This document shows positions 15,254-44,664 of a stretch of DNA of 64,000 nt, piece by piece. Made by a program: the position numbers and the translations under genes. Origin of the DNA: Candidatus Latescibacterota bacterium (GTDB lineage: Bacteria; Latescibacterota; UBA2968; UBA8231); the NCBI GenBank assembly GCA_965243025.1, contig CBDETY010000003.1:6624001-6688000 (forward strand). Direction: 5' to 3'. Within the stretch, counting starts at the first letter, position 1; each line of letters opens with the position of its first letter. Below the pieces are notes generated by a model, which was not told the origin of the DNA, searched no databases, and saw only the letters and a list, made by a program, of their open reading frames with translations.

Positions 15254-15345
15254 GTGAAATCGGTTCTGTATCCTTAACAACCCGCCACAGCCAGCCCCTG
15301 CCGCAACGGTTTCACAACCGGGAAAACAGAGGAAACAAAGGAAGG

Positions 15346-17106
15346 ATGATCAGCATTCGCAGCAAAGACGGATGTACCGCGACCCTGGCAGGCGGCCGCG
15401 GCCCGGGGTCCTCCCGGCCGCGTCCTGCCTGGTTGGTCCTTGTCCTGGCGGCCTGCTCGGCGCCGCCGGACGAAAAGGCGCCGGTGCCTGTTCCGTCGGG
15501 AGATGAGGCGCCGGCAGCTGTCGAGACTGCTCCCGACCGGGATGCGGTAGTTGCCAGGGTCGGGGATATGGAGATCACCGCGGCCGACCTGCGGGAATTC
15601 AGCGGCAGAATGCCCGAGCAGCTGCGAGGGGAAACGGCCGGAATCGAAAGGGCGAAAAACCACCTGCGGACGATGACGGACAGGGAGATTCTGCGGCTCG
15701 AGGCGCAGGCGCGAGGTCTCGATCAGAGCCGCGGTTTCCTCAAGAAGCTGAGCAAGGCCAGAAGGGAAAGGATCGTCGGCCTTTTTCAGGCGCGTGAAAT
15801 CGAAATCGAGACGAACCCGGAGGAGTTCGAGGAGTTCGTCGCCAGGGAGGAGCACGACCGGGCGATCCGGTTCAGCGAGATCATTGTCGAATCGAAGGCG
15901 GCGGCGGAGCGCGCCCGCGCCGAAATCGACGGCGGCAGGAGTTTCGAAGAGGTCGCCCGGGAAATGTCGCTGAGCAGGGCCACCGCGGAGCACGGGGGAG
16001 ACAGGGGGCGTGCTTCCGTCAAGGTGGAGATCGATCCGGTCTTCCGCGACGCCCTGTTTTCTCTCGAGGTGGGCGAAGTCTCCCGGCCGATCAGATTCCC
16101 CGGGAGACTTTGGGCGGTCGTCGAGGTTACGGACGAGACCAGTGTGAAGCTGGGGCCGATGGCGTTGCAGGAAGTGGTGAAGGAATTCCAGAGTCTCAAG
16201 TTCCGGGAGGCGCGCGACAAGCTGGCGGAGGAGCTGGCGCGGGAGTACCGGCTCGAGCTGAATCGCGGCGGGGTCGACCGCTTCCTTTCCCGGGCGCGCA
16301 TCGACAAGCCCTTCTCCCCGGAGGAGGAGGACTCGATCGTCCTCTACACCTTCACCGGCGGAAGCATCACTGCGGGGGATCTGATCGAAGCCCTGAAGGT
16401 CCGGCGCCAACGGCCGGATTCCATGGAGAAGGCTGACGACGTCATCGACGCGGCCACCCGCTTTCTGGTGCCGGACGCGGTGTTCATGGAGGCCGCGGTG
16501 CGCTCCGGGATACACGAGGAACCCGCGGTAGTCGCCTGGCTCGAAAGGCAGCGCCGGTGGCTGCTGATCGTCGAACTGCGCGCCTCCGTTCTCGAGGGAA
16601 GGCTGGAGGTCTCCAGGGACGAAGCGCGCCGGTATTTCGAGGACCACGCCGCCGTGTTCGCCGATCCCGAGCTGATCGTCATGGACGAGATCCTCGTCGC
16701 CACCGAAGAGGAGGCGCTCGGCCTGAGAAAGCAGATCGAAAAAGGGGCGGCGTTCGCCGAGCTGGCGGCGCGCTCGGAGCGGGCTCTCGATCACCGGGAC
16801 GAAAACGGCAGGGTCGAGCTGTATGCATTCGAGAAAGCGGCCTGGGGCGGCCTCGAAGCGGCGGCCAGGACCGCTCCCATCGGTGAGTTGATGGGTCCGC
16901 TGGAGGTGGCTGAGGGGTACTCCGTCTTCCGGGTTCTGTCCAGGGACCGCCGGCAGGTCACCTTCGAGGAGGTCGAGCGCCGCGTCGTCGCCACCGTCAG
17001 GTGGCTGCGGAAGCAGCGGCTGTTCGAAAGCGAAGTGGAAAGAATTCGGGAGAAGTACGCCTCCGAGGTGGAGATCCGCGAGGATGCCCTGGCGTCGGCC
17101 CTGTAG
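15346..17106 (+). CDS. Parvulin/PpiC-fold foldase lipoprotein (PrsA/SurA-like), two PPIase-like domains
   Basis: Lipobox LVLAAC; VVARVGDMEITAADL; SFEEVAREMS...GGDRG, LFSLEVGEVSRPI; second domain EILVATEEEA...FAELA, GELMGPLEVAEGYSVFRV. Confidence 0.85.
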   Translation: MISIRSKDGCTATLAGGRGPGSSRPRPAWLVLVLAACSAPPDEKAPVPVPSGDEAPAAVETAPDRDAVVARVGDMEITAADLREFSGRMPEQLRGETAGIERAKNHLRTMTDREILRLEAQARGLDQSRGFLKKLSKARRERIVGLFQAREIEIETNPEEFEEFVAREEHDRAIRFSEIIVESKAAAERARAEIDGGRSFEEVAREMSLSRATAEHGGDRGRASVKVEIDPVFRDALFSLEVGEVSRPIRFPGRLWAVVEVTDETSVKLGPMALQEVVKEFQSLKFREARDKLAEELAREYRLELNRGGVDRFLSRARIDKPFSPEEEDSIVLYTFTGGSITAGDLIEALKVRRQRPDSMEKADDVIDAATRFLVPDAVFMEAAVRSGIHEEPAVVAWLERQRRWLLIVELRASVLEGRLEVSRDEARRYFEDHAAVFADPELIVMDEILVATEEEALGLRKQIEKGAAFAELAARSERALDHRDENGRVELYAFEKAAWGGLEAAARTAPIGELMGPLEVAEGYSVFRVLSRDRRQVTFEEVERRVVATVRWLRKQRLFESEVERIREKYASEVEIREDALASAL

Positions 17107-17130: not shown

Positions 17131-19314
17131 ATGCAAGCGCGCAACCGGCAGAGGGTGAGCACGCGGGCATCCGGATCTTCCCGGCTCGCCGCCAGATACT
17201 GGTTCTGGCTGCTCGGGGGGACGGTGCTCCTCTCGCTGTGGCTGCGCTGGCCGCTCCCGGCCCCGGAATGGTCCCACTTCGACGAGGAATCCCTGGTCCT
17301 GATACCGCTGGGGTTCTGGAGCGGCGATCTCAACCCCCACTTCTTCAACTATCCCACGCTCCAGTTCTACCTGGCATCCCTCCTTTATTTCGTAAGGTTC
17401 GCCCTGGCCGACAGCGGCCCCCTGGAACAGTTCGTCGCCTACCGGTACTTCGTCGACGGCAGCGATCTGTTGTCCCTTGCCCGGGGCTTCGGCACCGTGA
17501 TGGCGGCGGCGACAGTGGCGGTCACGGGCTTTCTCGGGCGTCTCCTCTACGGCGCTGCCGGGGGGCTCCTGGCCGCCCTGTTCCTGGCGCTGATGCCCCT
17601 GTCGGTGCGCTTCGCCCATCTCGCCAACACCGACACCCCGGCGGTGCTGTGGGTCAGTCTCGCCCTGGTGTTCGCGGTGCGCATGCGCCAACGAGGGACC
17701 AGCGTCGACGCGCTCGCCGCCGGGCTCTTCGTCGGGCTGGCAGGGGCGACCAAGTACCCCGCGGCCCTGGCGGCGGTGCCGGTTGCGGCCGCGGCCTTGC
17801 TCAGGACCCCTTCCCTGAGGCAACCCGGCATCTGGTGCGCCGGCGCCGCGGCAGTTCTGGCCTTCTGTGCGGCGTCGCCGTACGTATGGCTCGACGCGGC
17901 GGCTTTCTGGAGCGATTTCTCCGAGATGGGACGCGATCATCTGATCCCGGATGCAGCAGCGGAACGGCCCCTTTTCTTTCACCTGCGCTACACCCTGCGT
18001 TTCGGACTCGGCCTGGGGGGTGCGGCACTCCTGTTTCTGGCACTGGCGCGCAAGCCGGGGGGCCTGAGCCGGGACGAAGTCGTGCTGCTTTCGGGGCTGG
18101 GTGCCTTCGCGATTCTGCTGGCGGCAGCCGGGTCGGTTTTCATGCGCTACGCGCTGCCCCTCACCCCGGTCGTGTCGGTGCTGATGGTGCGCCCCCTGCT
18201 TGGGTTGCGCCGCAGCCCGGCGCTTCTGGCCGGGGCCCTGGCCGTACTGCTGGCGGAGCCGGCCTGGACCTCGCTGCGCACCCGGGCCCTGCTGTCCGGC
18301 AGCGATACCCGCGAGCAGGCCGTCTCCTGGATGGGAAACCACTTCCCCGACCGCAGGCGGCTGGTGCACCTCCCCGACAAATGCGGGAACATCCAGGTGC
18401 TGACGCCGCACCGGGTCCTCGTCAGGCAGACGCATTTCCTTCGCAGTTTTGGCGAGGACAGGTTGATTGCGGCGTACGACTGGCTGCGCCAGCGCCATCG
18501 TCTGCCGCGGCTATATCTCGAACCGGGTCCGGCTTCTGTTCTCGACAGGGCGAGGCAGGAACCCGCGGCGGGTCCGGGGGTGATCCTGTTGGACTATCTA
18601 CACCCCCTCTGCGCCGATGCCGAGGTGTCGCCAAAGGCCGCAGAACTCGTCCCTTCAGCTTCCTGGCGGCAGACATTTTCTCCGGGAAAAAGGGTGGCTG
18701 CGGCCGATTTCGATCCCATGGACTGGTTTTTCCTTCCGCTTTCGGGGTTCGCCGGACTGGAGCAAACCGGGCCCACGATCCGGCTGGGAACACTGGGGTC
18801 CGACACGGAGGTGCCCGAACCCGGAGCCGCTACCCTGTTCGATGTGCTCCTCAACGCGCGGATCGGGCATCTGGCGATGCGGGACTCCGACTGGGACCAG
18901 GCAGTGCAGGCATTCGAGCGGGCCCTGAGGGTACCGCAATTGTCCGATTTGCTTCCCGATGCCTATGCCTGCCGCCTGTTGGGAAACGCGGGAGTCGCCC
19001 ATGGACAACTGGGCGCCCACGATCGCGCCCGTCCCTTGTTGAGGGCGGCGGTGGACCTGGTTCCCGACGATCCGGAATACTACAACGACCTGGCGGTCGC
19101 CTGCGCCGGCAGCGGCCGGATCGGGGAAGCGATCGAGGTTTGGGAGCGGCTTCTCGTCCTCGCCCCCGACCACCCCACCGCCTGCTTCAACCTCGCAAAA
19201 GCGCTCTACAACACCGGTCAGTACCACCGCGCATACGAGGTTGCCCTGAAGGGTCTCGGGCCGGATCACCCCTTTGCCGCCTCGGTGCGGCGTTTCCTCG
19301 GAAGGGATGAATGA
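17131..19314 (+). CDS. GT-C (ArnT/PMT_2-like) glycosyltransferase with C-terminal TPR repeats
   Basis: HFDE, DLNPHFFNYPTL, AHLANTDTP, GLAGATKY, FMRYALPL, DTREQA..W; TPRs at the end (YYNDLAVA, CFNLAKALY). Confidence 0.85.
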   Translation: MQARNRQRVSTRASGSSRLAARYWFWLLGGTVLLSLWLRWPLPAPEWSHFDEESLVLIPLGFWSGDLNPHFFNYPTLQFYLASLLYFVRFALADSGPLEQFVAYRYFVDGSDLLSLARGFGTVMAAATVAVTGFLGRLLYGAAGGLLAALFLALMPLSVRFAHLANTDTPAVLWVSLALVFAVRMRQRGTSVDALAAGLFVGLAGATKYPAALAAVPVAAAALLRTPSLRQPGIWCAGAAAVLAFCAASPYVWLDAAAFWSDFSEMGRDHLIPDAAAERPLFFHLRYTLRFGLGLGGAALLFLALARKPGGLSRDEVVLLSGLGAFAILLAAAGSVFMRYALPLTPVVSVLMVRPLLGLRRSPALLAGALAVLLAEPAWTSLRTRALLSGSDTREQAVSWMGNHFPDRRRLVHLPDKCGNIQVLTPHRVLVRQTHFLRSFGEDRLIAAYDWLRQRHRLPRLYLEPGPASVLDRARQEPAAGPGVILLDYLHPLCADAEVSPKAAELVPSASWRQTFSPGKRVAAADFDPMDWFFLPLSGFAGLEQTGPTIRLGTLGSDTEVPEPGAATLFDVLLNARIGHLAMRDSDWDQAVQAFERALRVPQLSDLLPDAYACRLLGNAGVAHGQLGAHDRARPLLRAAVDLVPDDPEYYNDLAVACAGSGRIGEAIEVWERLLVLAPDHPTACFNLAKALYNTGQYHRAYEVALKGLGPDHPFAASVRRFLGRDE

Positions 19315-19613: not shown

Positions 19614-20564
19614 ATGAAAACCATGAAGGGCCTTCTTTCGCTCAGTCTCATCCTGGGCCTCAGCGCCGCCTCGGCGCACGAGCCTCCGGGTGTGACGTAC
19701 TTCGCGGTCGCGTTCCCGACCCACGCCATCCCGGCCATCGATGGCGATCTCAGCGATTGGGACATGGTTCCGGAGTCGTACTGGGTGACTCGCGAGAATG
19801 ACTTCGAAGAGACGGTGATCGGAAACGATACCGAAGTCAGGCTCGACGATTTCAACGTCAAGCACATCCTCGGCTGGAACGAGGAGACCAACCGTCTCTA
19901 CGTGACCGCCGACGTGTTCGACGACTACTTCAAGAGGGACAAGGAAGATCCCTCGGGCGTCGACTGGGATGACGGTTTCGACTTCATCGTCGATGCCGAC
20001 CACAGCGGCGGCGACCTGTGGAACGGTGACTGGCACGCAGAGGAACACGACGACCAGATCGACCTGATCTTCGTCTCGGGCCAGAACTACCGCTACTACA
20101 CCCCGCCCCTCGACGGCTACTACATCTTCATGCTCGGCCGCGGTTTTGTCGGAAACGACAACTTCCTGACCACCGGTCGCGAGATCCTGACTCCCCAGTA
20201 CCTCGAGGTGGGTTGGACGGTCAATGCCGAGCTCTACGAATCCGGCAGCCGCACCTACGAGATGATGGTCACCCCGTGGGAGAACCTGTACCGCGGTGAA
20301 GACGGCGAAGCCCGCAGCACGATCGTCGATCTGGAAGTGGGGCGTATCCTCGGCATCGCCTACATGTTCAAGGACTTCGACGTACCCGTCGAAGGCGAGC
20401 GCTACTCGGCTTCGTACGATTTCCCGCCGTTGCACGACACCTGGCGCAACAGCAGCCTGCTCGCCGACTTCGAGTTGCTCGAAATCGAAAGTGACCTGTG
20501 GCCCACCGCTGTCGAGACCGACACCTGGGGTCGTATCAAGTCCGATTTCCTCATCGAGGAGTAA
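19614..20564 (+). CDS. Secreted acidic protein, possible CBM9-like fold, C-terminal TWGRIK tail
   Basis: GAGGAG RBS; signal peptide ending ASA-H; PAIDGDLSDW, VDADHSGG, YEMMVTPW; ends PTAVETDTWGRIKSDFLIEE. Confidence 0.8.
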   Translation: MKTMKGLLSLSLILGLSAASAHEPPGVTYFAVAFPTHAIPAIDGDLSDWDMVPESYWVTRENDFEETVIGNDTEVRLDDFNVKHILGWNEETNRLYVTADVFDDYFKRDKEDPSGVDWDDGFDFIVDADHSGGDLWNGDWHAEEHDDQIDLIFVSGQNYRYYTPPLDGYYIFMLGRGFVGNDNFLTTGREILTPQYLEVGWTVNAELYESGSRTYEMMVTPWENLYRGEDGEARSTIVDLEVGRILGIAYMFKDFDVPVEGERYSASYDFPPLHDTWRNSSLLADFELLEIESDLWPTAVETDTWGRIKSDFLIEE

Positions 20565-20609
20565 TCTCGAGGGGGTAATGAGGTAACGAGTAGAGGACGC
20601 AGTAACTTG

Positions 20610-20650
20610 CAGGGGGGGCTCTGACGATTGGGGCCCCCCCTGTTCTCTTT
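20610..20650 (+). terminator. Probable intrinsic terminator/attenuator after the TWGRIK gene
   Basis: CAGGGGGGGCTC-loop-GGGCCCCCCCTG stem followed by TTCTCTTT. Confidence 0.6.
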
Positions 20651-23473
20651 ATGCAGGCATTGCCGTTCAACATGGAAATGTGTCATTCGCGCCTGAATCG
20701 GATCAGACCGGACGGGGGTGCGAGAAACGCAGGACTGACGATCGCCTCCAGGGCGCAGTTCGTACGTCCTTTTTCTTTCGCCGCTGCCCTGGCTGTCATT
20801 GCATCGTTTGCGGGCGAGCTTTCCGCCCAGCTCGGATACAGCATCCGGGGAAACGAAATCGTCGTTGACCGCAGCTCCCACTGGGAGCAGTGGGCCGTCG
20901 CCGGAGGCACTGCGGAAATAACCGGGGATGGCTCGGTCGGACCTCGTTTCATGCGGAAGGAAATCAACGCTGCCCTGAATGCCACGGAGTTCGAGAACGA
21001 GGCCCAGGGAGCGGCCTTCGACGATGGACCGGGAGGGGTCAGCGCGGGATCCAACGGCAGCGAGGCCCGGTTCCTGATCGACGGCGACCCGGCGACGACC
21101 TGGGGGCCCGATACGGACAGGCCCTTGTCCGAATGGTGGGCGGAGGTGAACCTCGGGCGCATAGTAGTCGCCAACAGAGTGGTGGTGCGCTTCGCGGAGG
21201 AAGGGGAAGGGGATCCGTTCCTGCAGTTCAAGGTCCTGGCCTGGCGCCACGCTCCTCCCAGGGGGGCCCCCGAGCTCTGGCTTAACGGTGCTCCGGACAT
21301 ACCCAAGTACTGGGAGCTGGGAAGGACAGACAAGCCGAACAAAAGCCGGAAGGTGTTCGAGTTTGTTCCGGACCCCGAGGCCAACAACACTTTCCGGCCC
21401 CCGGAGTCCCTGATTCGGGCCAGCAGCAACTTCGCCGGGGATGCCATAGACAGGATCCAGGTCATCGCCACCGACAGCGATTTCGACAGGGCTTCCGAGG
21501 TGTTGCCCGAAGGAGGGATGACCGCAGAGGAAAGGTATCTCGCCCTCCCGGACCACGAGCGGGGTGCAGTCGATCACTACCGGCGCGAACCATCAGGTCG
21601 CGAGACCTTGATCTCCCCCGGCGAGTACGAAAACATCCGGGCGGAACGCCGGGGCTCGATCAGGTATTTCAGGAGAGAGCGCCCGCGAGTCGCCGAGATC
21701 GAGGTCTGGACCTCGGGCGACAACCTGGCGCTTGGAATGGCGGAACGGGGCGGCAGCGTCAACATCGAGTTTCCGAGTCCCGGCCTGGGCTGGAAGGACA
21801 TCACCGCGGTCGCGGTAGACGGCAGGCATTCGACGGCGCACACCGTAACCTTGTTCAGGCACTTCGGTCCGGCCGACTTCGTCGTCGACCTGGGTGCTCT
21901 CTACTGGATCGACACCATGCAGTTCCTGATGGACGGCAAGGACGCGATCGACGAGATGGCCGTGGATGTGTCGGACGGCAGCCGCGCTCCTGACGGCAGC
22001 ATCAAATGGAACCGGGCGGCGGGTGAAGTGACCGGATTGGGGGTGGGAGGAGTGGGATCCCATTTCGGGTACTCCTGCGATCACTGCGCCGGTGAGGGAG
22101 CGCAGAAATTCCGCCAGTACGATATCGAGCCTACCCGGGTGCGCTATCTCAGGGGCACGATCGGCACCCTCAAATCAAACCCGGGAGGAGGCGGGGTTCT
22201 GGGAACGTTCACCGCTTTCGCCGAAATGCTGTTGTACGGGGAAGGTTTCGTTCCGGAACTGGTGATGGATTCCGATCTCATCGAGCTGGGCGGGAGCAAG
22301 AACCTCAGCACGATTTCCTGGGAAGCGGACCTTCCCGGGGGGACCCGCATCGAGATCCAGACCCGTTCCGGGAACGAGTTGATCGAGAATTTCCTCTATT
22401 TCGATTCCAACGGGAATCCCGTGGAACCGGTCGACGATCCCGCGGCGGCAAAGTCGAAATACGACCGCCTTCCGAAGTCGAAGAAAGGGGAGGTAAAAAG
22501 CTTTTTTACACCCGGAGGAGACTGGTCTGCCTGGAGTCCGCCGTACCAGTTCAAGGGGGCCGACATCACCTCCCCGAGCCCCAGGGAGTTCATGCAGATC
22601 CGCGCTACCCTGTTCTCCGCAAGTGCCGACGCGGGTGCCTCCCTGCATTCGATCGCGGTGGATTTTTCCGATCCGGTCGCCGATCGCATGGTCGGCGAAG
22701 TGTTTCCCAGCCAGGTCGTGGATCTGGGAAAACCACTGGATCTGTCCTTCTTCATACGACCCTCGTTTTCCAGCTCCAGACAGCGGTTCGACGAGCTGAG
22801 GATAGAGGCGACCGGGGGGGCCACGATGGAGTTGGTCGAGGCGCTCGTCGGCAGCGACGAAGATTTCGCCGGCGACGCGGCAAAAATTTATCCGGCAGCC
22901 GAGTTGGAGGTGATCGATTCGGCGGACAGCACGTTGTGGTTCCGGTTGCCGGAACCTGTGGAAAGGGGAACCGACCTCGTCGAGGTGCGCTTCAGGCCGA
23001 CGATTTTCTCGACGAGTACTTCGTTCAAGGTGGCCGGACAGAATTCTGAGGAGCCCGGTTTCTGGCAGCGCGTCGACGCCGGCGACGCCACCGAACTGGT
23101 CAACAGCCAGACTACAGCGGTCCTCGCTCTTTCCGGAAACGAGGTTATCAGCAATCTCTCGACAGGTTCGGGGGTTATCACTCCCAACGGCGACGGCATC
23201 AACGACATTATGACCTTCCACTTCACGGTCTCGCGCATCAACAGCGAGCGCGAGGTTACGTTGACGATTTTCGACCTCGGAGGCAGTGTCGTCCGTCAGA
23301 AAATGGAAAAGAGGGTGGATCCGCGTGGTTCCTACGCGGTCTCCTGGCTCGGCGACGACGATTCGCAGTCCCTGGTGCCACCGGGGATCTACATCGCCAG
23401 AATCCGGATCGATGTCGATTCCGCGTCGGCAACCTCGACATCCGCCCATCGGCTGATCCACGTGGCATACTGA
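20651..23473 (+). CDS. Large secreted protein with discoidin/F5-8-like segments and C-terminal FlgD-Ig / T9SS-like CTD (true start may be downstream)
   Basis: Hydrophobic signal FAAALAVIASFAGELSAQ; LIDGDPATTW, VNLGR, AEIEVW, AEMLLYGEGF, WSAWSPPY; ITPNGDGIND...IFDLGGSVVR...VPPGIYIARI...HVAY. Confidence 0.8.
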   Translation: MQALPFNMEMCHSRLNRIRPDGGARNAGLTIASRAQFVRPFSFAAALAVIASFAGELSAQLGYSIRGNEIVVDRSSHWEQWAVAGGTAEITGDGSVGPRFMRKEINAALNATEFENEAQGAAFDDGPGGVSAGSNGSEARFLIDGDPATTWGPDTDRPLSEWWAEVNLGRIVVANRVVVRFAEEGEGDPFLQFKVLAWRHAPPRGAPELWLNGAPDIPKYWELGRTDKPNKSRKVFEFVPDPEANNTFRPPESLIRASSNFAGDAIDRIQVIATDSDFDRASEVLPEGGMTAEERYLALPDHERGAVDHYRREPSGRETLISPGEYENIRAERRGSIRYFRRERPRVAEIEVWTSGDNLALGMAERGGSVNIEFPSPGLGWKDITAVAVDGRHSTAHTVTLFRHFGPADFVVDLGALYWIDTMQFLMDGKDAIDEMAVDVSDGSRAPDGSIKWNRAAGEVTGLGVGGVGSHFGYSCDHCAGEGAQKFRQYDIEPTRVRYLRGTIGTLKSNPGGGGVLGTFTAFAEMLLYGEGFVPELVMDSDLIELGGSKNLSTISWEADLPGGTRIEIQTRSGNELIENFLYFDSNGNPVEPVDDPAAAKSKYDRLPKSKKGEVKSFFTPGGDWSAWSPPYQFKGADITSPSPREFMQIRATLFSASADAGASLHSIAVDFSDPVADRMVGEVFPSQVVDLGKPLDLSFFIRPSFSSSRQRFDELRIEATGGATMELVEALVGSDEDFAGDAAKIYPAAELEVIDSADSTLWFRLPEPVERGTDLVEVRFRPTIFSTSTSFKVAGQNSEEPGFWQRVDAGDATELVNSQTTAVLALSGNEVISNLSTGSGVITPNGDGINDIMTFHFTVSRINSEREVTLTIFDLGGSVVRQKMEKRVDPRGSYAVSWLGDDDSQSLVPPGIYIARIRIDVDSASATSTSAHRLIHVAY

Positions 23474-23639
23474 ATGGGACCGTCTCTTTTGTCCCTGCCG
23501 GCCTGGGAGTGGAACCGGGAGTTCCAATCTGCGGCTCCCGTCGCCGCCACCCATATGCGGCGGTATGCCATGACAACCGCATTTCGATTCCCAGAATCGA
23601 TATTCCCCCGTCAGTCGGGGGAAGGATTCCGACTGTCTC

Positions 23640-25862
23640 ATGAATGCTGAACGAACCGGGCGCGGGGAACCGGCTCGCCGCTCGAGAAACGAGCCTCTTC
23701 TGGGGCTGCTTGCGGGGGTACTGATTGTCGCTTTCTCGGGGGGTGCGGCGAACGGGCGCACGATAGTCTTCGGCGGGGAGAGCGGCATCGAGTGGAGCGG
23801 CGGCGGCGACGGCATCACGCCGGTCTACATCATAGGGTCGCAGGCGATCGAGTCGGGAAACACTCCCGGCGGAGTGATCGACTTCGGCACCAGGGAAGGC
23901 TGGATGTCGCCGGAACTGGCCGACGAGTCAGAGAATATCGCCCTTGGCCTGCTCCAGCGGGGGGGTGTGATTACGGCGCCGAGCGTGCTGGAGAATCTCG
24001 ATACGGTCCTGCCCCTTATGGTCGACGACGACGGCGAGACCGCCTTCGAGAGAAAGGACTCCCCCGGGAGGCAGGTGAACACCCTCGGGGTCGTACTGCA
24101 GTTCGACCTCGGCTCGCAGTTCGGCGTCAGCAGGTTCAAGTTCTTCCCCAGGAACGCCGACCAGGCCTACGCGACCGAGGCGTTTCCGTTCGAAGACGAT
24201 TTCCTGCGGGCGTTCGAGCTGTTTCTCAACGACGGCTCCGACGAAACCCAGATCAGCGGCCGGCCGATATTCGGCCCCGGAGTCCTGCTCGAGCTGCAGA
24301 ACGACAAGCCGGTCGTCGAGCTGGAGATCGAGCCCCAGCTCGTTCGCCACATCCAGCTGAAATCGCATACCACCGTCGATTTCGAAATCGCCGAGTTCCA
24401 GGTTTTCGGGGCCGGGTTCGTGCCCCGGGCGCAGTACCTGACCAACATTCTCGATTTCGGCGAAAACCTCGCCCTCTGGGGCCGGATCCGCTGGGAAGAG
24501 GAGAGCATCGGCGATTCTCTGCGCTCGCGCGTCGAGATCCGCACGCGGACCGGCATCGACGATACTCCGGTAGTCTTCAACCGCCGCCGCCCTGACGAGG
24601 CGCAGGTTCCCTGGGCGGAGGCCGGGGAGTTCGACGAGGGTTCCCGGGAGAGGGAGATCGTCGAGATTCTCGATGCCGAAGACCTCGATCCGCGGGCGGC
24701 CCTGCGGCTGTACAACGAGTTGCCGCTCGATCAGCGGAACGCCATCGCATTGAGTGAAGGGGAGTACGGCCGCCTCAAGTCGGGGGTGAAGGGCCTCGTG
24801 CGGGACGACGTGGACAACTGGAGCACCTGGTCGCCGCCGTACTCCTCGGCGGGGGTCGGAACTGCTTCCCAGATTGCCGCCGGAGAAGGCGGGGTTCCGA
24901 TCGTTTCTCCCGGGCCGGCGCGCTATTTCCAGGTGAGGATCGATTTCGAGAACGACGACCTGTTCTCCGCCAGGAGGGTCGGAGCCCTTTCGATCGACGT
25001 TTCCGGTCCCTCTCTGGCTGAGCGGATCGTGGCTGAAATCAGCCCCCGGGAAGCGGACCTGGGACGCGCCCGGGAGTTCTCCTACACCGTGATACCCGAT
25101 CTGCGTCCCGGGATCGACCTCGGCTTCAGCGCCCTGGAGATTTCGACGCCGGTGCGCGTCCTGTCCATCGGCGAGATCACCTATACACGGCCGGATGGCA
25201 GCACCTCCGCGGAGGAATTCGGGGACGCAGACCTCGAAGCCCTTCCGATCCGCCGCGGAGATCTCAGCATCGACCTGATCGAGGAGACGCGGTTCCGCAT
25301 CGGTTTTCCCACCGTGGAATCCAGCCGCATCGAGGATGGGGAGATGACCGTAATAAAGGTCACTTTCACCTGCCCCGTGCTGAGGGCCGCGACCGCTTTC
25401 TCAGGCAGGGCGCTTCCCGACGCGGCGGAGGGCCTGCCGCAGGAGTTGAGCGGCGGCAACGCCGCCGACATCGCCTCCGCCTCCGGGGGGAAGGTGGTGC
25501 GCAACGCCGCCAACATTGTCGTCCAGGTCCCGATAAAAGGAGCCCTGTTGATCAACGCGGGCGCCACTCCGAAGGTCTTTACTCCGAACGGCGACGGTTT
25601 CAACGAAGCCACGGTCCTCGACTACGACGTGACGAGCCTGATCGGGAGCGCGGATGTAAAGACGCGGATTTACGACCTTTCCGGCCGCCTGGTGCGGGAG
25701 GTATACACCGGCACCGACAAAAGCGGCAGATACTCGCGGAGCTGGGACGGAACCGATGCCTACGGAAACGCAGTGCCGCCCGGCTCCTACCTGTTCAGGA
25801 TATCCGTGGACGCCGACTCCGGGAACGAAGAAACGAGTGGGATAGTAGTCGTGGCGTACTGA
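23640..25862 (+). CDS. Secreted protein with C-terminal FlgD-Ig / T9SS-like CTD
   Basis: Signal peptide; IVFGGESGIEW, FDLGSQF, AEFQVFGAGF, WSTWSPPY, RYFQVRIDF; FTPNGDGFNE...IYDLSGRLVR...WDGTDAYGNAVPPGSYLFRI...VVAY. Confidence 0.85.
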   Translation: MNAERTGRGEPARRSRNEPLLGLLAGVLIVAFSGGAANGRTIVFGGESGIEWSGGGDGITPVYIIGSQAIESGNTPGGVIDFGTREGWMSPELADESENIALGLLQRGGVITAPSVLENLDTVLPLMVDDDGETAFERKDSPGRQVNTLGVVLQFDLGSQFGVSRFKFFPRNADQAYATEAFPFEDDFLRAFELFLNDGSDETQISGRPIFGPGVLLELQNDKPVVELEIEPQLVRHIQLKSHTTVDFEIAEFQVFGAGFVPRAQYLTNILDFGENLALWGRIRWEEESIGDSLRSRVEIRTRTGIDDTPVVFNRRRPDEAQVPWAEAGEFDEGSREREIVEILDAEDLDPRAALRLYNELPLDQRNAIALSEGEYGRLKSGVKGLVRDDVDNWSTWSPPYSSAGVGTASQIAAGEGGVPIVSPGPARYFQVRIDFENDDLFSARRVGALSIDVSGPSLAERIVAEISPREADLGRAREFSYTVIPDLRPGIDLGFSALEISTPVRVLSIGEITYTRPDGSTSAEEFGDADLEALPIRRGDLSIDLIEETRFRIGFPTVESSRIEDGEMTVIKVTFTCPVLRAATAFSGRALPDAAEGLPQELSGGNAADIASASGGKVVRNAANIVVQVPIKGALLINAGATPKVFTPNGDGFNEATVLDYDVTSLIGSADVKTRIYDLSGRLVREVYTGTDKSGRYSRSWDGTDAYGNAVPPGSYLFRISVDADSGNEETSGIVVVAY

Positions 25863-25898
25863 CGAGCGCCGCTTCTGGAAAAAAGGGAGAGTTCCTAT

Positions 25899-28694
25899 AT
25901 GACCGGGATTTTCATGAGGGGGTACGCGCGCCTGCTGATCCCCGTCCTCGCAGCGGCAGTACTGGCGACAACGGTCCTGGCGCAGGACTACGGCGCCCGC
26001 CTGGGGACGAGGCGCGGAGGTACGGTCACCTTCGAACCGCGGGGAGCCGGGGTGCTCTTCGACGCCCTCGACCCGGCGGTAAAGAGGTGGTACGTCCCCC
26101 AGGAGCTCTACAACGAGTACCGCTGGAAGTCCTGGGAGTATTCGAACTACGCCAGGGTTCCCTACCAGCGCTACGTCAACACTGCCCTCGAAGGCGACTA
26201 CTTCTACGACGTGTACGGGAACTACGTCACCAGGGGGTGGCTGATCTACGACTGGAGGCAGGAGGCCAACACCCCGCAGGGCAGCTCGATCTATCAGGAC
26301 GCCAACTACCGCAACTGGTTCAGCAGCCTGGTCGTGGCCTCCGACTCGAAGGGGTCGGTATTCTACTCTCTCACGGTCGGCGATGACATCCGCACGACAC
26401 TGACGCCGCTGACTTTCTCGAAGCCTCGCTACAACGGGATTCAGCTCGATGCGGCGACCGACAAGTACGCGGGAACGCTGTTGCTTTCGCGCGCCAACAG
26501 CCCGATAAACGGATCGGTCACGGTGCCGGATCGCCGCACCAGCTCGACCAATCTGATCGCCGGCCGGGTGACCGCCCAGGTCGGCGACTTCGTCACCGTC
26601 GGCGGCACTCTCGTCAACGCCCACAACTCGCGCTCCAGCCTCGGTGCATTCAGCGGCAATTCCTTCAACGGCACGCTGGCAGAAGGGCAGGGGAGTTCGC
26701 CGGTGACGGCCATCGCCCTGATCCTCAGCGACGATTCACCGGAGGACGGGGAGGCGGGAGCCGCCCTGTTTTCCCACGACGTCAGGGTCGTCCGCCAGGA
26801 TTTCCAGAGCGGGGCCAGAACCACCCTGCGGCTCGCGGACCTGACCAGCGACCCGACCCGTTGGCCGATAATCGAAGGGGGTTTCTTCGAAGAGGGATTC
26901 CTTTCGGCCAATGGCCGGCAGCGAATGGTCATCAACTACGACTTTACCGATCCGGCCTACATCGGACCCGACCCGAGCGAGATCGTCGAAGTCGCTTTCG
27001 AGCTGATACTGGCAAACGACTTCAGGGTCCAGGTCTGGTCCGACCGGCAGACAGGTCAATCGGTCGTGCCGAACGCGCCCCTGACCATCGCCGCCCTCGA
27101 CAACGAGAACCCCGCCCTGCTCGAGGTCGCGCAGGCCTCGGGCAACGTCAAGGACGGCTCCAACCGCCAGCGCGTGGCCTTCGATTACGGGCTTCCGACG
27201 GCGAACCAGATAGCCGGCTTCACCATCGAGCTCACCGACGTCAAGGGGCTCGACGTGTACGCCGAGTACGACGTCAACCACCGCTTCCGGCAGTACCCCA
27301 ACGCCGCCCGCTTCAACGACAACAAAACCTTTTCGACCGCCTCCTCCAGCTCCGAAGCGTGGATGGTGAACGCCTCGTACAAATCCTTTCCGTGGTTCTT
27401 TTTCGGCGAGGCGTTCTCGATGGAGCGCGACTACTCGACGAGCACCTACATCGTCAACATACTCGGCGACGTCGTTTACGACCGGCCCTCGAGCTCCTTC
27501 TACGAATTCGTCGACGACAACGACGACCAGGACCGCTATCCCGACTGGCAGCGGCCGAACCAGGGGGGGCGCGACCTGGAGATTTTCCCGGGCTGGGACG
27601 AGAACAACGACTTCGTCTCCGACTTCAACCAGAACGACAACCGCTCGATCAGCAACCGCCTTCCCGACTACGAGGAACCCTTCCTCAGGTACACCGTCGA
27701 CCGCCCGGAATTCCTGTTCGGCATCGACCTGAACAACAACGGCTGGATCGACCGCTTCGAGAACGACGACGAGCCCGACTACCCCTACAAGCGGGATCAC
27801 AGCGGCTACAACGCCTACGGGGGTGTAAATCTCACCGCTTACGGGCGGGTGACCGTGGGGCAGACCCGGCAGGAGCTGTTGTCGTCGAACCGGAGGAACA
27901 ACACGACCTACGGTCTGGCGAGCTTCGACAGGGATTACTCGGCCCTGGGGCGTCTGCGGATATTCAACATGCTCAAAAGGGTCGAGGACAACATTCCCGA
28001 CGACCGCTTCGAGCCGCAGGCGTTTCTGCTGGCCGGGGCCCCGCGCAACGTCCCCGACATCGTGCCGGCGCCCGACACCTGGGTCAACTCCCTGTGGCTG
28101 GGGTTCGATTACCGGCGAATCTCCAATCTCAACGTGGTCAACAAGGTCAAGCTCGAGACCTATCTGCAGCAGGATGACGATCCGCGGGCCCTGGACGGGA
28201 GCCAGCTCAACAGCGAGTCCGCCTTTTTCGGTGTGGTCAACCGGGCCGATTACACCTACGCGATCGGCGCCTTCATCCTGCAGCCGCGGGTCAAGAGCGA
28301 GTACCTGCGCCAGACCGCGTTCCTGAAGCGCAGCCAGGACCGCAAGGAATGGCGCCGCCTGATCTCTCTGACGGGCAAGACCCCGATCCTGCGGAACTCG
28401 CAGTTGGAGCTGGGGCTGGAGCTGATGCAGCTCGCCGATTTCGAGCTCGACGAGCAGGAGCTTCTCGACCAGAACACGATCGGTCCCACCGGAGACCTCA
28501 CCGAGACGAACCTGGCCCTGCAGTGGTCGACGCGAACCGACTACCAGGGGTACAAGCTGTTGCTGCAGACCGGGTTCAGGCTGACGCGGGCGGCGATCGA
28601 GACGATCGAGATCCGGGAACTGGAAACGGTGAAGAGGGAGGAATCAGAAACTACGGGCACCACTTTCCTGACCATTTACGCCGGTCTGGAATGA
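25899..28694 (+). CDS. ~930-aa exported protein, putative outer-membrane beta-barrel with acidic Ca-binding-like loops (paralog A)
   Basis: Signal peptide (VLA-QDYG); alternating aromatic/polar strands; DDNDDQD, DENNDF, DLNNNG motifs; ends TTFLTIYAGLE; colinear with 28711..31485. The barrel is inferred. Confidence 0.7.
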   Translation: MTGIFMRGYARLLIPVLAAAVLATTVLAQDYGARLGTRRGGTVTFEPRGAGVLFDALDPAVKRWYVPQELYNEYRWKSWEYSNYARVPYQRYVNTALEGDYFYDVYGNYVTRGWLIYDWRQEANTPQGSSIYQDANYRNWFSSLVVASDSKGSVFYSLTVGDDIRTTLTPLTFSKPRYNGIQLDAATDKYAGTLLLSRANSPINGSVTVPDRRTSSTNLIAGRVTAQVGDFVTVGGTLVNAHNSRSSLGAFSGNSFNGTLAEGQGSSPVTAIALILSDDSPEDGEAGAALFSHDVRVVRQDFQSGARTTLRLADLTSDPTRWPIIEGGFFEEGFLSANGRQRMVINYDFTDPAYIGPDPSEIVEVAFELILANDFRVQVWSDRQTGQSVVPNAPLTIAALDNENPALLEVAQASGNVKDGSNRQRVAFDYGLPTANQIAGFTIELTDVKGLDVYAEYDVNHRFRQYPNAARFNDNKTFSTASSSSEAWMVNASYKSFPWFFFGEAFSMERDYSTSTYIVNILGDVVYDRPSSSFYEFVDDNDDQDRYPDWQRPNQGGRDLEIFPGWDENNDFVSDFNQNDNRSISNRLPDYEEPFLRYTVDRPEFLFGIDLNNNGWIDRFENDDEPDYPYKRDHSGYNAYGGVNLTAYGRVTVGQTRQELLSSNRRNNTTYGLASFDRDYSALGRLRIFNMLKRVEDNIPDDRFEPQAFLLAGAPRNVPDIVPAPDTWVNSLWLGFDYRRISNLNVVNKVKLETYLQQDDDPRALDGSQLNSESAFFGVVNRADYTYAIGAFILQPRVKSEYLRQTAFLKRSQDRKEWRRLISLTGKTPILRNSQLELGLELMQLADFELDEQELLDQNTIGPTGDLTETNLALQWSTRTDYQGYKLLLQTGFRLTRAAIETIEIRELETVKREESETTGTTFLTIYAGLE

Positions 28695-28710
28695 TGGAGG
28701 CCCTGGCAGC

Positions 28711-31485
28711 ATGAACGAGCTCATGCCGACAATCAGACGCCGGGCAAGCCGCATCGGTTTTGCCTGTCTGCTGGCCGCCCTGGCAGGTCAGCCGCAAACC
28801 GGAGAAGCGCAGCCGGAGTACGGCAACCGCCTGGGTGAGCGGGGACCCACCGGGGTGGTGTTCCGGCCCTACGGCCCCGGAGTGGACACCGGGCTCCTCG
28901 ACCCGATGCTGAGAAAACAGTACCTGCCGCAGGAGATTCGCCACGAGCACCGGTGGCGAACATGGCAGACCACCAACTACGCCGTCGACTCCTTCAAGCG
29001 CTACCTGTCTCCCCGTCTGCAGGGAGAATACCACTACGACAACTTCGGGAACTACCTCACGAGAGGGTGGCTGGTCTACGACTGGACCGAAGACCGCCCG
29101 AGAACCTCCGAAGGCAGCCGCATCCTCAGGACCGACAACTACGCCTCCTTCTTCTCCAACCTGATCATCGCCGCGGACCAGAAGGGGCAGTACTCCTACG
29201 CGGTGACCATCGGCGACGAGATCCGAACGACCTTGACGCCGATGACCTTCCGCAAAGCCGTCTTCAACGGAACCAAACTCGACTTCGCCTCGGACCGGTT
29301 GTCGATCACCGGGCTGATGTCGCGGATAAGCGCCCCCGGCTTCACGACCGACCCGAATCCGGCGGCGCTCAACAACGCCGTCAACATGCAGGCGGGCAGG
29401 GCGGAGTTCAGCATCGGCGACCACGTCATCCTCGGGGGCACTTTCGTGAACGCCCACAGCACGCGAGGAACCCTGGAAAGCTTCAAGGGCAACCCCCTGA
29501 AAGGAGCCCTGTCGACGAGCCAGGTGCAGAACCAGGTCAACACCATAACCATCAGGCTGAGCGACGATTCACCCGGTGATTCGCGGGGAGGGGCGGTGCT
29601 CCTTTTCGACGACATCGAGGTTGCGACCGCCATCGGCGGAGTCGACACCGTGCTTTCGGGCAACAGCATCGGCTTTACTCCCGACAGGGAGGGGGGGACG
29701 CTGAGGGAAGGAGTGCTGGTCGCCGACGGGAGCGAGCAGATCCTGCTGCGTTACGAGCTCGCCAAACTGGGGGAGATCATTAGCGACAGGGACCTCGTCA
29801 AGAACATCACGGCGGTCCGCTCCCGCCTCATCCTGGTCAACGACTACAAGGTCGAGGTAACCTCCGACCGCCAGACCAACCTCGAAGGACAGCCGGTCTT
29901 TCTGACCGTGGCCCAGGCCGAGGGCAACATTCAGGACGGGTCCAACCGGCGCGAGGTCGCTTTCAACTACGGCCTGCCCACGGCCAACCAGATCTTCGGG
30001 TTCACTCTCGAGACGAATGAAATCCTCGGCTTCAGGTTGTTCACCGAGTTCGACGTCAACCACCGGTACCGGCAGTACCCCAACAACCAGCTGCAGAAAC
30101 ACCAGGCGTATTCGGGGATCGAGGGAGACGAGACCGCCTACGCCTGGATGATGAACCTGTCGAAATCGGACTACCCCTGGTATTTCCTCGCTGAAGGCTT
30201 CTACATGGACGAAGACTACAGCACGAGCTCCTACATCCTCGACGGGATCGGCAGGGTCGACTACGAGGACGACACGCGAAGCCTGTACGATTTCGTCGAC
30301 GACAACGACGACGACGACAGGCTGCCGGATCAGAAGCGGCTCTACCAGGATCCCAGGCAGGGACACCAACGGCAGAACCAGAGCCGCTCATCGGCGGGTT
30401 TCGCCGACGACGCCATCTTTCCGGGGTGGGACGAGAACGGGGATTTCGTCTCCGACTTCAACCAGAACAGCAACCGGCTTCAGGAGAACGTCTTTCCCGA
30501 CTACGACGAGCCCTTCCTGCGCTACTCCTCGGACCGTCCCGAGTTCCTGTTCGGCATCGACCTGAACAACAACGGCTGGATCGACCGCTTCGAGAACGAC
30601 GACGCACCGGACTATCCCTACAAACGGAACCAGAAGGGGTACAACCTGTTCCTGCGCCGCTACCTGTCTCCCGAGCTGCGGCTGCAGGGGGGGCGGACGC
30701 GGCAGGAGCTGATATCCGACGACCGCAGGAACCGGACGACTTACGGGATGGTGGCCTACGAGCGGGATTTTGCGGGTGCGGGGAAGTTCCGCTTCTACAA
30801 CCTGCTCAAGAAAGCCGAAGACGACATCCAGGACGATCTGGTCCAGTGGGTGCAGGCTCCGGGGTCGACGGGCTCGCTGACGCCCGTAGCCGACCCCCTG
30901 GCCGCCCTCGACACCTGGATCAACACCGCCTGGCTCGGCCTGGAACGGCGTGCCAACCTGGGAATCAACTTCGCCCACAAGCTCAAATACGAAACCCTGA
31001 GACAAGGTTCGGGCGAGAGCGGGCACAAGAAGAGCACCCGCTTCCTGGGGGTCGTCAACAAGGCGGCGTACCTGATCGACGCCGGCAACCTTCAGATCAG
31101 GCCCCGGTTGAAAAGCGAGCTCCTGAGAGACAATACCCCCTATGCCCTCGGGGGGGAGGAGCGGCAGGAGTGGACCGGCACGCTCGATGTTTCGGTGCGC
31201 TTCCCCTTCCTCAACAAGAGCCAGGTCGAGCTGGGGGTCGAGCAGCTGTTCTTCGAGGAGCTGATCGTCGACGACGAGGAGGTGGAGGAGGGGGAATTCA
31301 CCGGCGATTTCCGCAACACCGTGCTGGCGGCCCAGGTGACCAACATCGGAGAGTACGGGGGCTACCGGTTGATAACCCAGTTCGGCTACAGCCTCAACAG
31401 GAGGAGCTTCGAAAGATCGGACCGGGAGCGGCAGTCCGAGACGGGCGGTCTGTCGTTCGCGACGGTGTACGCCAGTCTGCGGTGA
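28711..31485 (+). CDS. ~924-aa exported protein, putative outer-membrane beta-barrel (paralog B)
   Basis: Shares GNY.TRGWL.YDW, T.GD.IRTTLTP.TF.K, GGT.VNAH, YGLPTANQI.GFT.E and RPEFLFGIDLNNNGWIDRFENDD with paralog A; ends SFATVYASLR. Confidence 0.7.
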   Translation: MNELMPTIRRRASRIGFACLLAALAGQPQTGEAQPEYGNRLGERGPTGVVFRPYGPGVDTGLLDPMLRKQYLPQEIRHEHRWRTWQTTNYAVDSFKRYLSPRLQGEYHYDNFGNYLTRGWLVYDWTEDRPRTSEGSRILRTDNYASFFSNLIIAADQKGQYSYAVTIGDEIRTTLTPMTFRKAVFNGTKLDFASDRLSITGLMSRISAPGFTTDPNPAALNNAVNMQAGRAEFSIGDHVILGGTFVNAHSTRGTLESFKGNPLKGALSTSQVQNQVNTITIRLSDDSPGDSRGGAVLLFDDIEVATAIGGVDTVLSGNSIGFTPDREGGTLREGVLVADGSEQILLRYELAKLGEIISDRDLVKNITAVRSRLILVNDYKVEVTSDRQTNLEGQPVFLTVAQAEGNIQDGSNRREVAFNYGLPTANQIFGFTLETNEILGFRLFTEFDVNHRYRQYPNNQLQKHQAYSGIEGDETAYAWMMNLSKSDYPWYFLAEGFYMDEDYSTSSYILDGIGRVDYEDDTRSLYDFVDDNDDDDRLPDQKRLYQDPRQGHQRQNQSRSSAGFADDAIFPGWDENGDFVSDFNQNSNRLQENVFPDYDEPFLRYSSDRPEFLFGIDLNNNGWIDRFENDDAPDYPYKRNQKGYNLFLRRYLSPELRLQGGRTRQELISDDRRNRTTYGMVAYERDFAGAGKFRFYNLLKKAEDDIQDDLVQWVQAPGSTGSLTPVADPLAALDTWINTAWLGLERRANLGINFAHKLKYETLRQGSGESGHKKSTRFLGVVNKAAYLIDAGNLQIRPRLKSELLRDNTPYALGGEERQEWTGTLDVSVRFPFLNKSQVELGVEQLFFEELIVDDEEVEEGEFTGDFRNTVLAAQVTNIGEYGGYRLITQFGYSLNRRSFERSDRERQSETGGLSFATVYASLR

Positions 31486-43818: not shown

Positions 43819-44663
43819 ATGATACGCGTGGATCTGCGCCAATCCCATCGCCTGCGCTGGTTGCTGATCTCCGTCCTGGCGGCGGTCGGCGCCGGCATGG
43901 GGGTGCTCGCGCTTCCGGCGGCCTGGGACCTCCCGTTGCCGCCCGTAGAGGATCTGCAGGCGATCTTGCCGAAGTGGGGCACGCCGCCGCCGGCTGCGAA
44001 CGAGCTCCCGCCCGAAGAGGCGCCTGTCCCCGAATCCCCGGAAATCCCTCGGGGGAGTACCGCCTGTCTGCGTATCCTGCGCCTGGGGAATCAGCTTTCT
44101 CCTCCCCTTAGGTTGACCTCGCTGGCGGCCGACGGAAGCGGCGGATATCACCTCGAAGGGTCGTGCCGGGGCGACCAGGTGGAGAGCTTGCAGGGCATTC
44201 TCGATTCCCTGAAGAGACTGCCGGCGAAGGCGAGCCTGTCGTACTGGCGCGACCCGAATGCGGTGGAGGACCAGTACCGGTTCGCCTTCCGGGGAAAACT
44301 GAGCGGGTTCGGCGGAATGCCGCTGCCGCCGGTGACCGCGGCGGAAGGGGCGCAGCTGTTCGAGCAGGTGGTGGAGCGGGCGCGGGACGCCGGACTGCGC
44401 GGCGTCAATGCCGACGCCGTGGCACAGCGGCCGCTCGGCGAATCCCTTCTGCGCAAAAGGGGAAAGTTCTGGGGGTCTGGTTCCCGTTCCCAGATAACGG
44501 CTTTCGCGCGCGCGATCGGCTTGCCGACGAAACGGCGGGCACTGGTCGAGCTGCTCGTCGTTCCGGGCTATCCCGGTGAGAACGCGGACTGGGAGAGCGC
44601 CCAGATGTTCGCGACCGTCGACGTTGTGGTGAAGGCCGGGAAAAACCGAAACGGAGATTTGTG

Positions 44664-44664
<1 letters not shown>
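43819..44664 (+). CDS. Bitopic membrane protein, PilN/PilO-like (weak)
   Basis: MIRVDL N-terminus (cf. PilN 'I.INL'), single TM, LTSL...HLEG; located directly after the PilM-like gene. Confidence 0.4.

Follow-up and report, generated by a model that had tools for sequence, protein, structure and literature searches.

Predicted giant outer-membrane barrels accompany type-B-like tailed proteins in a repeated gene module of a Latescibacterota bacterium

In Bacteroidota, SusC/SusD pairs combine a TonB-dependent barrel with a surface glycan binder that is lipid-anchored. A further combination of barrel and surface protein in that phylum belongs to the secretion system of type IX (T9SS): genes for type-B cargo are linked to PorP/SprF genes, and the cognate barrel is needed for secretion and binds the cargo at the surface, according to two papers (PMC12618676, PMC9143113). 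Here we analyse a stretch of 64,000 nucleotides (the window) from an uncultured, sponge-associated Candidatus Latescibacterota bacterium (assembly GCA_965243025.1, contig CBDETY010000003.1, positions 6,624,001 to 6,688,000), in which five co-oriented open reading frames (ORFs) on the + strand, g333-ctdA-ctdB-omA-omB, span positions 19614–31485. The proteins encoded by ctdA and ctdB end in type-B-like tails, and omA and omB encode two paralogous proteins of ~930 residues, which are predicted to be outer-membrane β-barrels. Because the slot of PorP/SprF is filled here by a giant barrel where PorP/SprF itself was not found, these barrels might most likely be cognate partners that occupy the genomic place of PorP/SprF and anchor lectin-like proteins delivered by the T9SS, an explanation to which we give about even chances.

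Like the type-B cargo and PorP/SprF systems of F. johnsoniae (SprB-SprF, Fjoh_3952-Fjoh_3951) and P. gingivalis (PG1035-PorP-PorE), the module combines a CHU_C-type tail of ~100 residues bearing TPNGDG with a barrel gene directly downstream of the cargo gene, the gap between ctdB and omA being 36 bases. There are likewise several cargo and barrel pairs per genome together with orphan cargos, and both SprA and PorU are present. However, PorP/SprF has ~300 residues, whereas the module barrel has ~930 residues with roughly 22–26 strands, gives no PorP/SprF match, and is often an ordered pair of old paralogues in which the N-terminal region and an Asp-rich loop are conserved. The module is amplified to ~25 copies, compared with 12 type-B substrates in F. 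johnsoniae. The tails also miss the cut-off of TIGR04131, the organism stands outside Bacteroidota, and GldL, GldM, and GldN went undetected. With SusC/SusD, the module shares a large barrel of similar size next to surface binders as well as massive amplification and diversification within one genome, but it has no Plug/TonB-receptor domain, no SusD, and no nearby catabolic enrichment, and a T9SS tail takes the place of the lipid anchor. The SlpA/SlpA_C barrels of Deinococcus-Thermus (PF21620; 8ae1) provide the best Foldseek match, and SlpA_C appears below threshold in relatives of the module barrels; the differences are that neither an SLH nor a coiled-coil part turned up in the module barrels, that the SlpA_C scores stay below the cut-off, and that the template-modelling (TM) score is 0.23. 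As for the carbohydrate-binding family CBM9 (CBM9_1), five of 33 relatives of g333 and its nearest Atlas clusters match it, although g333 itself is sub-threshold, has no enzyme domain, and carries a C-terminal WGRIK tail.

The genome containing the window comprises 6.8 Mb in three contigs and is 96% complete. The window is G+C-rich (0.58–0.72), and the nearest named relatives of its proteins are from metagenome-assembled genomes of Candidatus Latescibacterota, some of whose records carry the label Gemmatimonadetes. Sequencing runs containing the window are labelled as sponge, coral, and marine metagenomes. The five module genes are separated by 86, 166, 36, and 16 bases, and all show the codon-position pattern of genuine genes in this genome, with G+C at third codon positions of 0.76–0.87 and low G+C at second positions. 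Direct inspection of the translations revealed a hydrophobic signal-like N-terminus on all five proteins; g333, when translated from the ATG at 19614, starts with MKTMKGLLSLSLILGLSAASA and continues with HEPPG. A preliminary description of the window, made from the sequence alone, had proposed five co-oriented and mostly close-set genes for exported proteins, among them a WGRIK protein, two proteins with an FlgD-Ig-type C-terminal tail, and two full-length paralogues of ~930 residues with Asp/Asn-rich loops. All of these elements were confirmed, as described below.

The two barrel genes, omA (25899–28694, + strand, 931 residues) and omB (28711–31485, + strand, 924 residues), encode proteins that share 42% identity over their full length. 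Neither protein matches any Pfam or NCBIfam family at E-values up to 0.1, including the PorP/SprF models PF11751 and TIGR03519, and searches of PDB sequences with profiles of the barrel family or of its remote members found nothing meaningful and no SlpA. The family has more than 1129 members in a collection clustered at 90%, none of them named, and comprises 965 clusters at 50% identity (E up to 1e-3), 344 of which reach 1e-30. We regard the family as new; there is no name, domain model, or paper for it. An Atlas score of 0.89 had pointed to DUF6029 as the identity of the barrels, which was not confirmed, as neither omA nor omB gave a DUF6029 match in Pfam.

The AlphaFold model of omA (predicted local distance difference test score, pLDDT, 68.4; predicted TM score, pTM, 0.62) consists of long antiparallel hairpins in which short turns alternate with longer loops. 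From the DSSP string, we count approximately 22–24 long strands outside an inserted β-domain at about residues 251–420; the model also contains an Asp/Asn-rich loop of 123 residues. The best Foldseek matches are SlpA, LptD, MtrB, TonB-dependent receptors, ushers, and SprA (E 1e-6 to 1e-3, TM 0.17–0.25). A search independent of Foldseek returned membrane barrels in all rows, mostly bacterial outer-membrane proteins, with Z-scores of 10–14 and root-mean-square deviations (r.m.s.d.) mostly of 6–11 Å. Because the top matches of these fold searches are all barrels, omA and omB are predicted to be large outer-membrane β-barrels that are near no solved family. The structure prediction suggested in the preliminary description thus yielded a barrel for omA, and neither a soluble fold nor a characterised family emerged.

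The best-conserved regions of the barrel family are the N-terminal region and the Asp/Asn-rich loop rather than the barrel wall. In the N-terminal region of omA (residues 30–142), conservation reaches 90% or more in 41 of the 113 columns, with pLDDT below 50. The loop (27429–27797, + strand, residues 511–633) is the most conserved part of the family, with 66 of its 123 columns at least 90% conserved; Asp, Asn, and Glu make up 35% of its residues, and the model is of low confidence there. It contains four D-x-[DN]-x-[DN] motifs starting at residues 539, 567, 575, and 610, of which we take the motif DLNNNGWIDRFE to fit the EF-hand-type loop pattern. Judged from these motifs, the loop probably harbours calcium sites. 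The same loop, which is common to the paralogues, also accounts for depth peaks and apparent joints in mapped reads at 27.1–27.7 kb and 30.2–30.8 kb, for which a rearrangement was considered and rejected.

The tailed proteins are paralogues of each other, with 24% identity over 686 columns (E 4e-30). The 940-residue ctdA protein (20651–23473, + strand) has a weak discoidin-like domain (F5_F8_type_C_2, 26.4 bits, under the cut-off of 27.8) and a β-rich body before the tail, and full-length paralogues with 52–54% identity are found elsewhere in the genome. The ctdB gene (23640–25862, + strand) encodes an exported, all-β protein of 740 residues, whose AlphaFold model (pLDDT 84.9, pTM 0.72) shows a jelly-roll followed by Ig/FN3-like domains and then the tail. 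Its Foldseek matches comprise macroglobulin, complement, RbmA, galactose oxidase, and PorU β-domains with low TM scores, as for a multi-domain chain, and no enzyme fold was prominent among them. We read ctdA and ctdB as non-enzymatic binding proteins, for which sugar binding might be proposed.

The tail domains occupy 23174–23470 in ctdA (residues 842–940) and 25569–25859 in ctdB (residues 644–740), both on the + strand, and the C-terminal ends contain GVITPNGDGINDIMTF and KVFTPNGDGFNEATVL, respectively. At the extreme C-terminus, both proteins pass the cut-off of 27 bits of Pfam CHU_C (PF13585), with 29.1 bits for ctdA (842–920) and 35.7 bits for ctdB (644–737). FlgD_ig, which has the same cut-off of 27, scores 43.5 bits in ctdB at residues 670–724 and 19.8 bits in ctdA, below the cut-off. 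PF13585 and PF13860 are present in nearly all of the 120 ctdB relatives among the matches listed, some of which bear the NCBI name 'T9SS type B sorting domain-containing protein'. The window contains another member of this family, an orphan paralogue of 683 residues at 5005–7056 (− strand) that has no neighbouring barrel (FlgD_ig 35.0 bits; CHU_C 19.7 bits, sub-cut-off). A 93.7% identical copy of this orphan gene lies 3.6 Mb away at C3:2983308-2985356, which indicates recent duplication within the family.

The module is repeated across the genome. A tblastn search identified 57 loci, which contain 42 places of the barrel family, 96 of the tail family, and 17 of the g333 family, and the three families together account for 4.51% of the genome DNA. 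A co-oriented tail-family place was found within 3 kb at 33 of 41 barrel places, compared with 3.0 on average and 12 at most in 1000 random placements. A rough gene call (3907 ORFs) gave 40 barrel genes and 82 tail genes; the first non-barrel gene upstream of the 40 barrels was a co-oriented tail gene in 27 cases, another co-oriented gene in seven, and a gene on the opposite strand in six. We conclude that the genome holds ~25 copies of the module and that the grouping is real and beyond chance.

The same arrangement is present in other genomes, where 358 of 387 pattern matches encode an omA relative. Among the best 80 loci, which were retained, the tail family occurs in 77, the three exceptions being short or cut contigs; the g333 family occurs in 54, and 57 have at least two barrels. 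In 72 of the 80 loci, the first barrel is preceded by a tail gene on the + strand whose end lies no more than 600 bases upstream; seven others are cut by contig edges, and one shows neither. Gene order is strictly kept, with gaps of 16–36 bases, across genomes down to 46% identity, so that the cluster, whose synteny the preliminary description had left to be checked, proved strongly syntenic both within this genome and in others. A FastTree phylogeny of 38 barrel copies from the genome, from which high-scoring segment pairs shorter than 700 residues were left out, separates the barrels by position. One clade (support 95) unites eight of nine first-position barrels, omA inside, with three single barrels; another (support 99) unites eight of nine last-position barrels, omB inside, with one single barrel. 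These position-specific clades indicate that the barrel pair is old and was copied as a unit, and this in turn argues for a joint function.

We sampled 151 genomes of the phylum, including that of the window. The barrel family is present in 95 of them: in all 63 genomes of family f1, all 13 of f10 (as distant relatives), and one of five of f8, but in none of the 30 of f2, the 19 of f3, or the two of f4. CHU_C exceeds its cut-off in 109 of the 151 genomes. In barrel-less lineages, the best E-values are 1e-4 to 1e-6 with 1–11 matches; in most barrel-bearing genomes, they are 1e-8 to 1e-15 with at least 32 matches. The preliminary description had reasoned that the barrels could not be partners of the tails if tailed proteins were common in genomes without SprA and barrels, and in this sample the occurrence of strong CHU_C tails parallels that of the barrel family. 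The WGRIK tail is found together with the barrels and the strong type-B-like tails; SprA does not set these lineages apart. The PorP/SprF model matches in 29 of the 151 genomes, with none among the 63 other genomes of f1, the family to which the genome of the window belongs, and 25 of 30 in the sister family f2, where the matches are weak (20–28 bits). At one sister-family locus without giant barrels (G028:C1:1964000-1983000), a gene for a 374-residue PorP/PorV-like protein (29.7 bits) follows a gene resembling TonB receptors and a gene for a 718-residue protein of no family.

The first gene of the module, g333 (starting at 19563 or 19614 and ending at 20564, + strand), encodes an exported, CBM9-like protein. 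No Pfam or NCBIfam match was found in g333 itself, and CBM9_1 was not reached at E 0.01. In its family, the five of 33 aligned members that match CBM9_1 (PF06452) do so with a best E-value of 3.9e-5, and the nearest Atlas clusters (scores 0.94–0.97) carry CBM9_1 in 37%, 13%, and 94% of members; a profile search of PDB sequences returned nothing meaningful for g333. The protein ends in TWGRIKSDFLIEE, which agrees with the preliminary naming of a WGRIK protein. The tail TAVETDTWGRIK (20505–20540, + strand; residues 315–326 of the ORF starting at 19563) resembles a portable address-like tag and is the conserved part of the family, in which V317, E318, W322, and K326 are invariant.

This tail is by no means confined to g333. 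The motif WG.[IVL]K occurs in 47 called proteins, 43 of which have it inside the last 25 residues, and a search at the DNA level for AVxxx[ST]WGx[ILV]K gave 72 matches in the genome, all 72 with an in-frame stop at most 35 codons further on. Thus the motif [ST]AVExx[ST]WGx[ILV]K plus 3–8 residues terminates at least 72 genes, on unrelated exported domains that include Fasciclin, Cache, Temptin_C, PD40 propeller, LTD (lamin-tail), and CBM9-like proteins. Across the phylum, the pattern occurs in 86 of the 151 genomes (f1 63/63, f2 1/30, f3 1/19, f8 0/5, f10 2/13), and a reversed control never exceeded one match; it is thus found almost only in lineages with the close giant-barrel family. The WGRIK tail has the appearance of an address or docking signal that has yet to be described.

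Several T9SS components are encoded in the genome. SprA, the translocon, is encoded in a single copy at 36196–42387 (+ strand; PF14349, E 3.3e-31), 4.7 kb after omB. The SprA protein has 2063 residues, and the SprA_N model matches residues 1027–1456 only; the next two genes, at 42841–43809 and 43819–44664, belong to no family. PorU is present in two full-length copies over the cut-off, with 615 and 621 bits (C3:3584240-3588665 and C3:6052108-6055281), one of which adjoins a PorV-like gene (95.6 bits, sub-cut-off). Dozens of proteins in the genome have tails matching the C-terminal domain of PorU itself. No match to PorP/SprF (PF11751, TIGR03519) was found in the genome.

How the module might work can be outlined as follows. 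The locus would represent a single copy of an outer-membrane module that is specific to the lineage of Latescibacterota-type bacteria, and its five proteins would be exported by Sec. The omA and omB barrels, an old duplication kept as an ordered pair, would be inserted in the outer membrane, probably with help from a SurA-like chaperone, which would meet a heavy demand for barrel assembly. Such a chaperone with two peptidyl-prolyl isomerase (PPIase) domains of the parvulin type is encoded upstream of the module at 15169–17106 (+ strand; Pfam Rotamase_2 76.6 bits, Rotamase 60.3 bits). Nine of the 14 copies of this family in the genome lie within 6 kb of a barrel (random mean 0.9, maximum 4 in 500 trials), and in other modules the SurA-like gene is directly downstream of a barrel. 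The ctdA and ctdB proteins would pass the outer membrane via the single SprA of the genome and would then be received and held at the surface by the cognate barrel or barrels through contact with their tails. The two barrels might form a heteromer. The outcome would be a surface-exposed binding device, of which the ~25 paralogous module versions differ in ligand. More tentatively, the barrels might serve as a new class of docking hub, an ordered heteromer with calcium-binding surface loops that receives type-B-like as well as WGRIK tails and builds dozens of substrate-specific devices for capture and perhaps uptake, in other words, a Latescibacterota counterpart of SusCD made from different parts.

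A number of observations weigh against the barrels being cognate partners of T9SS cargo. The partner role is read from genomic context; compared with PorP/SprF, the barrels are three times as large and have no detectable sequence in common with it. At eight of the 41 barrel places, a co-oriented tail gene is missing within 3 kb, and roughly half of the tail family stands without a neighbouring barrel (82 tail genes for 40 barrels). Both tails miss the type-B cut-off of 35 bits of NCBIfam TIGR04131 (ctdA 18.3 bits, ctdB 26.0 bits). GldL, GldM, GldN, and GldM_1st were not found in the genome by searches with Bacteroidota-derived models, whose controls were silent for three models and weakly positive in Caulobacter for the fourth; the motor of the T9SS in this organism may be divergent or missing. 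SprA is present in 143 of the 151 genomes of the phylum, including 29 of 30 in f2 and all 19 in f3, lineages without barrels. The phyletic co-occurrence offers few independent contrasts, the lineages being kin; moreover, the barrels of f10 are distant (all 13 genomes, E 1e-11 to 1e-62) and its CHU_C matches middling, and the genera g5 and g18 have divergent barrels with weak tails. At the sister-family locus described above, no CHU_C gene stands beside the PorP-like gene, so that the canonical pairing was not seen there, and at a second sister-family locus (G035), a scan of four genes revealed no neighbouring CHU_C gene. The closeness of SprA to the module is probably incidental, because among the matches listed it is repeated in the same genus only: the distance from SprA to a barrel is ~10.5 kb in G079 of the same genus, like in the window, and the nearest barrel among the matches listed is 62–64 kb from SprA in G061, G110, and G132 of another genus.

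The preliminary description had suggested that the large pair could be partner barrels for type-B tails with a SprA translocon nearby. The barrels, the tails according to Pfam CHU_C, the synteny, the lack of PorP/SprF matches, and the parallel occurrence of strong CHU_C tails and barrels lend this suggestion partial support; the type-B assignment falls short in NCBIfam, and SprA does lie 4.7 kb from omB without this vicinity probably meaning much. Its alternative of a SusCD-independent uptake complex gained no support, as catabolic and inner-membrane transporter families, once their abundance across the genome is taken into account, show no enrichment close to the modules.

A SusCD-like uptake machine nevertheless deserves to be weighed, and it is compatible with anchoring: the barrel would be a nutrient channel, its N-terminal 113 residues the plug, and the tailed and CBM9-like proteins would feed substrate to it. 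We hold this possibility tentatively. Some 40 barrels and 82–96 binders taking up 4.5% of the genome are reminiscent of SusC/SusD expansions. SusD itself was not found (SusD_RagB had no match in the genome, and the control matched in B. thetaiotaomicron). The barrel is about the size of a TonB-dependent receptor, its residues 179–926 align with the barrel of BtuB (Z 12.1), and the conserved N-terminal region stands at the expected place of a plug, although no plug fold is visible in its low-confidence model. Jelly-roll, discoidin-like, and CBM9-like domains are present. However, the Pfam scan gave no PF07715 (Plug) or PF00593 (TonB-receptor) match in omA or omB, and the 29 Plug-bearing genes of the genome all lie elsewhere than at barrel loci. 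FG-GAP/ASPIC genes are modestly enriched near barrels (11/44 against a random mean of 3.1 and maximum of 11, which is borderline), but the other families occur there at chance: DUF6785/6784 at 5/50 (random mean 3.5), enolase-type dehydratases at 2/69 (4.7), and GHL10 at 1/24 (1.6). This un-enriched catabolic inventory counts against reading the modules as polysaccharide-utilisation loci. Such a context had been considered and was rejected, since the apparent recurrent neighbours are merely abundant genome-wide, and the SurA-like PPIase alone is clearly enriched.

Alternatively, the barrels might be self-contained export pores that translocate or assemble the upstream proteins independently of SprA, in the manner of usher, two-partner, or Slam systems, with the CHU_C-like tail as their own signal. 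A barrel gene placed behind the gene of its presumed substrate, the order known from two-partner and usher systems, would suit such a pore, and so would the fold matches to FhaC, CdiB, TamA, PapC, and FimD (Z 11–14), the undetected GldL, GldM, and GldN, and the equal presence of SprA in barrel-less lineages. Yet these fold matches are generic for barrels (r.m.s.d. 8–10 Å), the Pfam scan found no POTRA or usher plug domain in omA or omB, the genome does encode SprA and PorU, and CHU_C tails are, according to PMC12618676 and PMC9143113, an established signal of the T9SS, so that we consider export pores unlikely. We judge it equally improbable that the barrels are structural envelope proteins of the SlpA type, abundant scaffold porins anchoring an Ig-rich coat of tail proteins. 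Trimeric SlpA (8ae1_A) is the top Foldseek match of omA (E 1e-6), but with a TM score of 0.23 and an r.m.s.d. of 20 Å, and it does not appear in the 50 rows that the search independent of Foldseek listed. SlpA_C (PF21620, cut-off 35) appears in nine of 26 remote barrel representatives at 16.7–30.2 bits, all sub-threshold, and in two divergent paralogues of the genome at 20.1 and 15.4 bits, with controls matched in Thermus and Deinococcus; these matches span ~75 of the 656 model positions (231–308), and omA and omB have none. While ctdB is a chain of Ig-like domains with an S-layer protein at rank 42 of its fold matches, the Pfam scan found no SLH domain in omA or omB, PDB profile searches did not bring up SlpA, and a structural coat leaves the ~25 diverged modules unexplained. 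The SlpA relation of the barrels is therefore a thin lead. The genes might, finally, be co-amplified envelope genes that share regulation without any physical partnership of their products, as the many solitary tail genes and some solitary barrel genes could suggest. The strict gene order with gaps of 16–36 bases at identities down to 46% and the position-specific barrel clades make this very improbable.

Some further features of the locus concern its expression and its neighbourhood. A possible terminator or attenuator hairpin between g333 and ctdA (20609–20643, + strand) has 16 pairs, 10 of them G-C, followed by a T-rich run. The region contains 16 terminator-like sites against a shuffle expectation of 16.0, and it is the stem size alone that makes this hairpin stand out; it may allow g333 to be expressed above the rest of the module. 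In one metatranscriptome run, contigs that are 93–97% alike cover pieces of six genes, namely the PPIase gene, g333, ctdA, ctdB, omB, and the one that follows. These contigs stem from a related strain, and DNA may be present in the library; the run gives a weak hint of expression. Either side of the SurA-like gene, at 13199–15280 (− strand) and 17131–19314 (+ strand), lie genes for membrane proteins with PMT_2 (dolichyl-phosphate-mannose-type glycosyltransferase) and TPR domains, for which a link to surface-protein glycosylation is possible. At 51292–52782 and 52569–53903 (both − strand), adjoining genes encode ABC-3 metal-transport permeases, each with a C-terminal Fe_dep_repr_C domain (iron-dependent-repressor dimerisation), which is an unusual fusion. 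Amplified elsewhere in the genome are DUF6785/DUF6784 (~50 places), the enolase superfamily (MR_MLE, 69), FG-GAP/UnbV_ASPIC (44), and GHL10 (24).

A literature search for Latescibacter or Latescibacteria together with type IX secretion found no paper, and nothing relevant appeared among the titles listed by broader searches. If the barrels are partners of the tailed proteins, the logic of type IX cargo plus cognate barrel reaches beyond Bacteroidota, with a different and threefold larger barrel. The module would then provide a handle on the open questions of how type-B cargo is sorted and retained at the surface and of what replaces SusCD-type capture in other phyla of the superphylum, and the WGRIK tail would be a further, unstudied address signal. 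The role of the module is probably the display of capture proteins on the cell surface, and because it takes up 4.5% of the genome, it must be central to the dealings of these bacteria with their surroundings.

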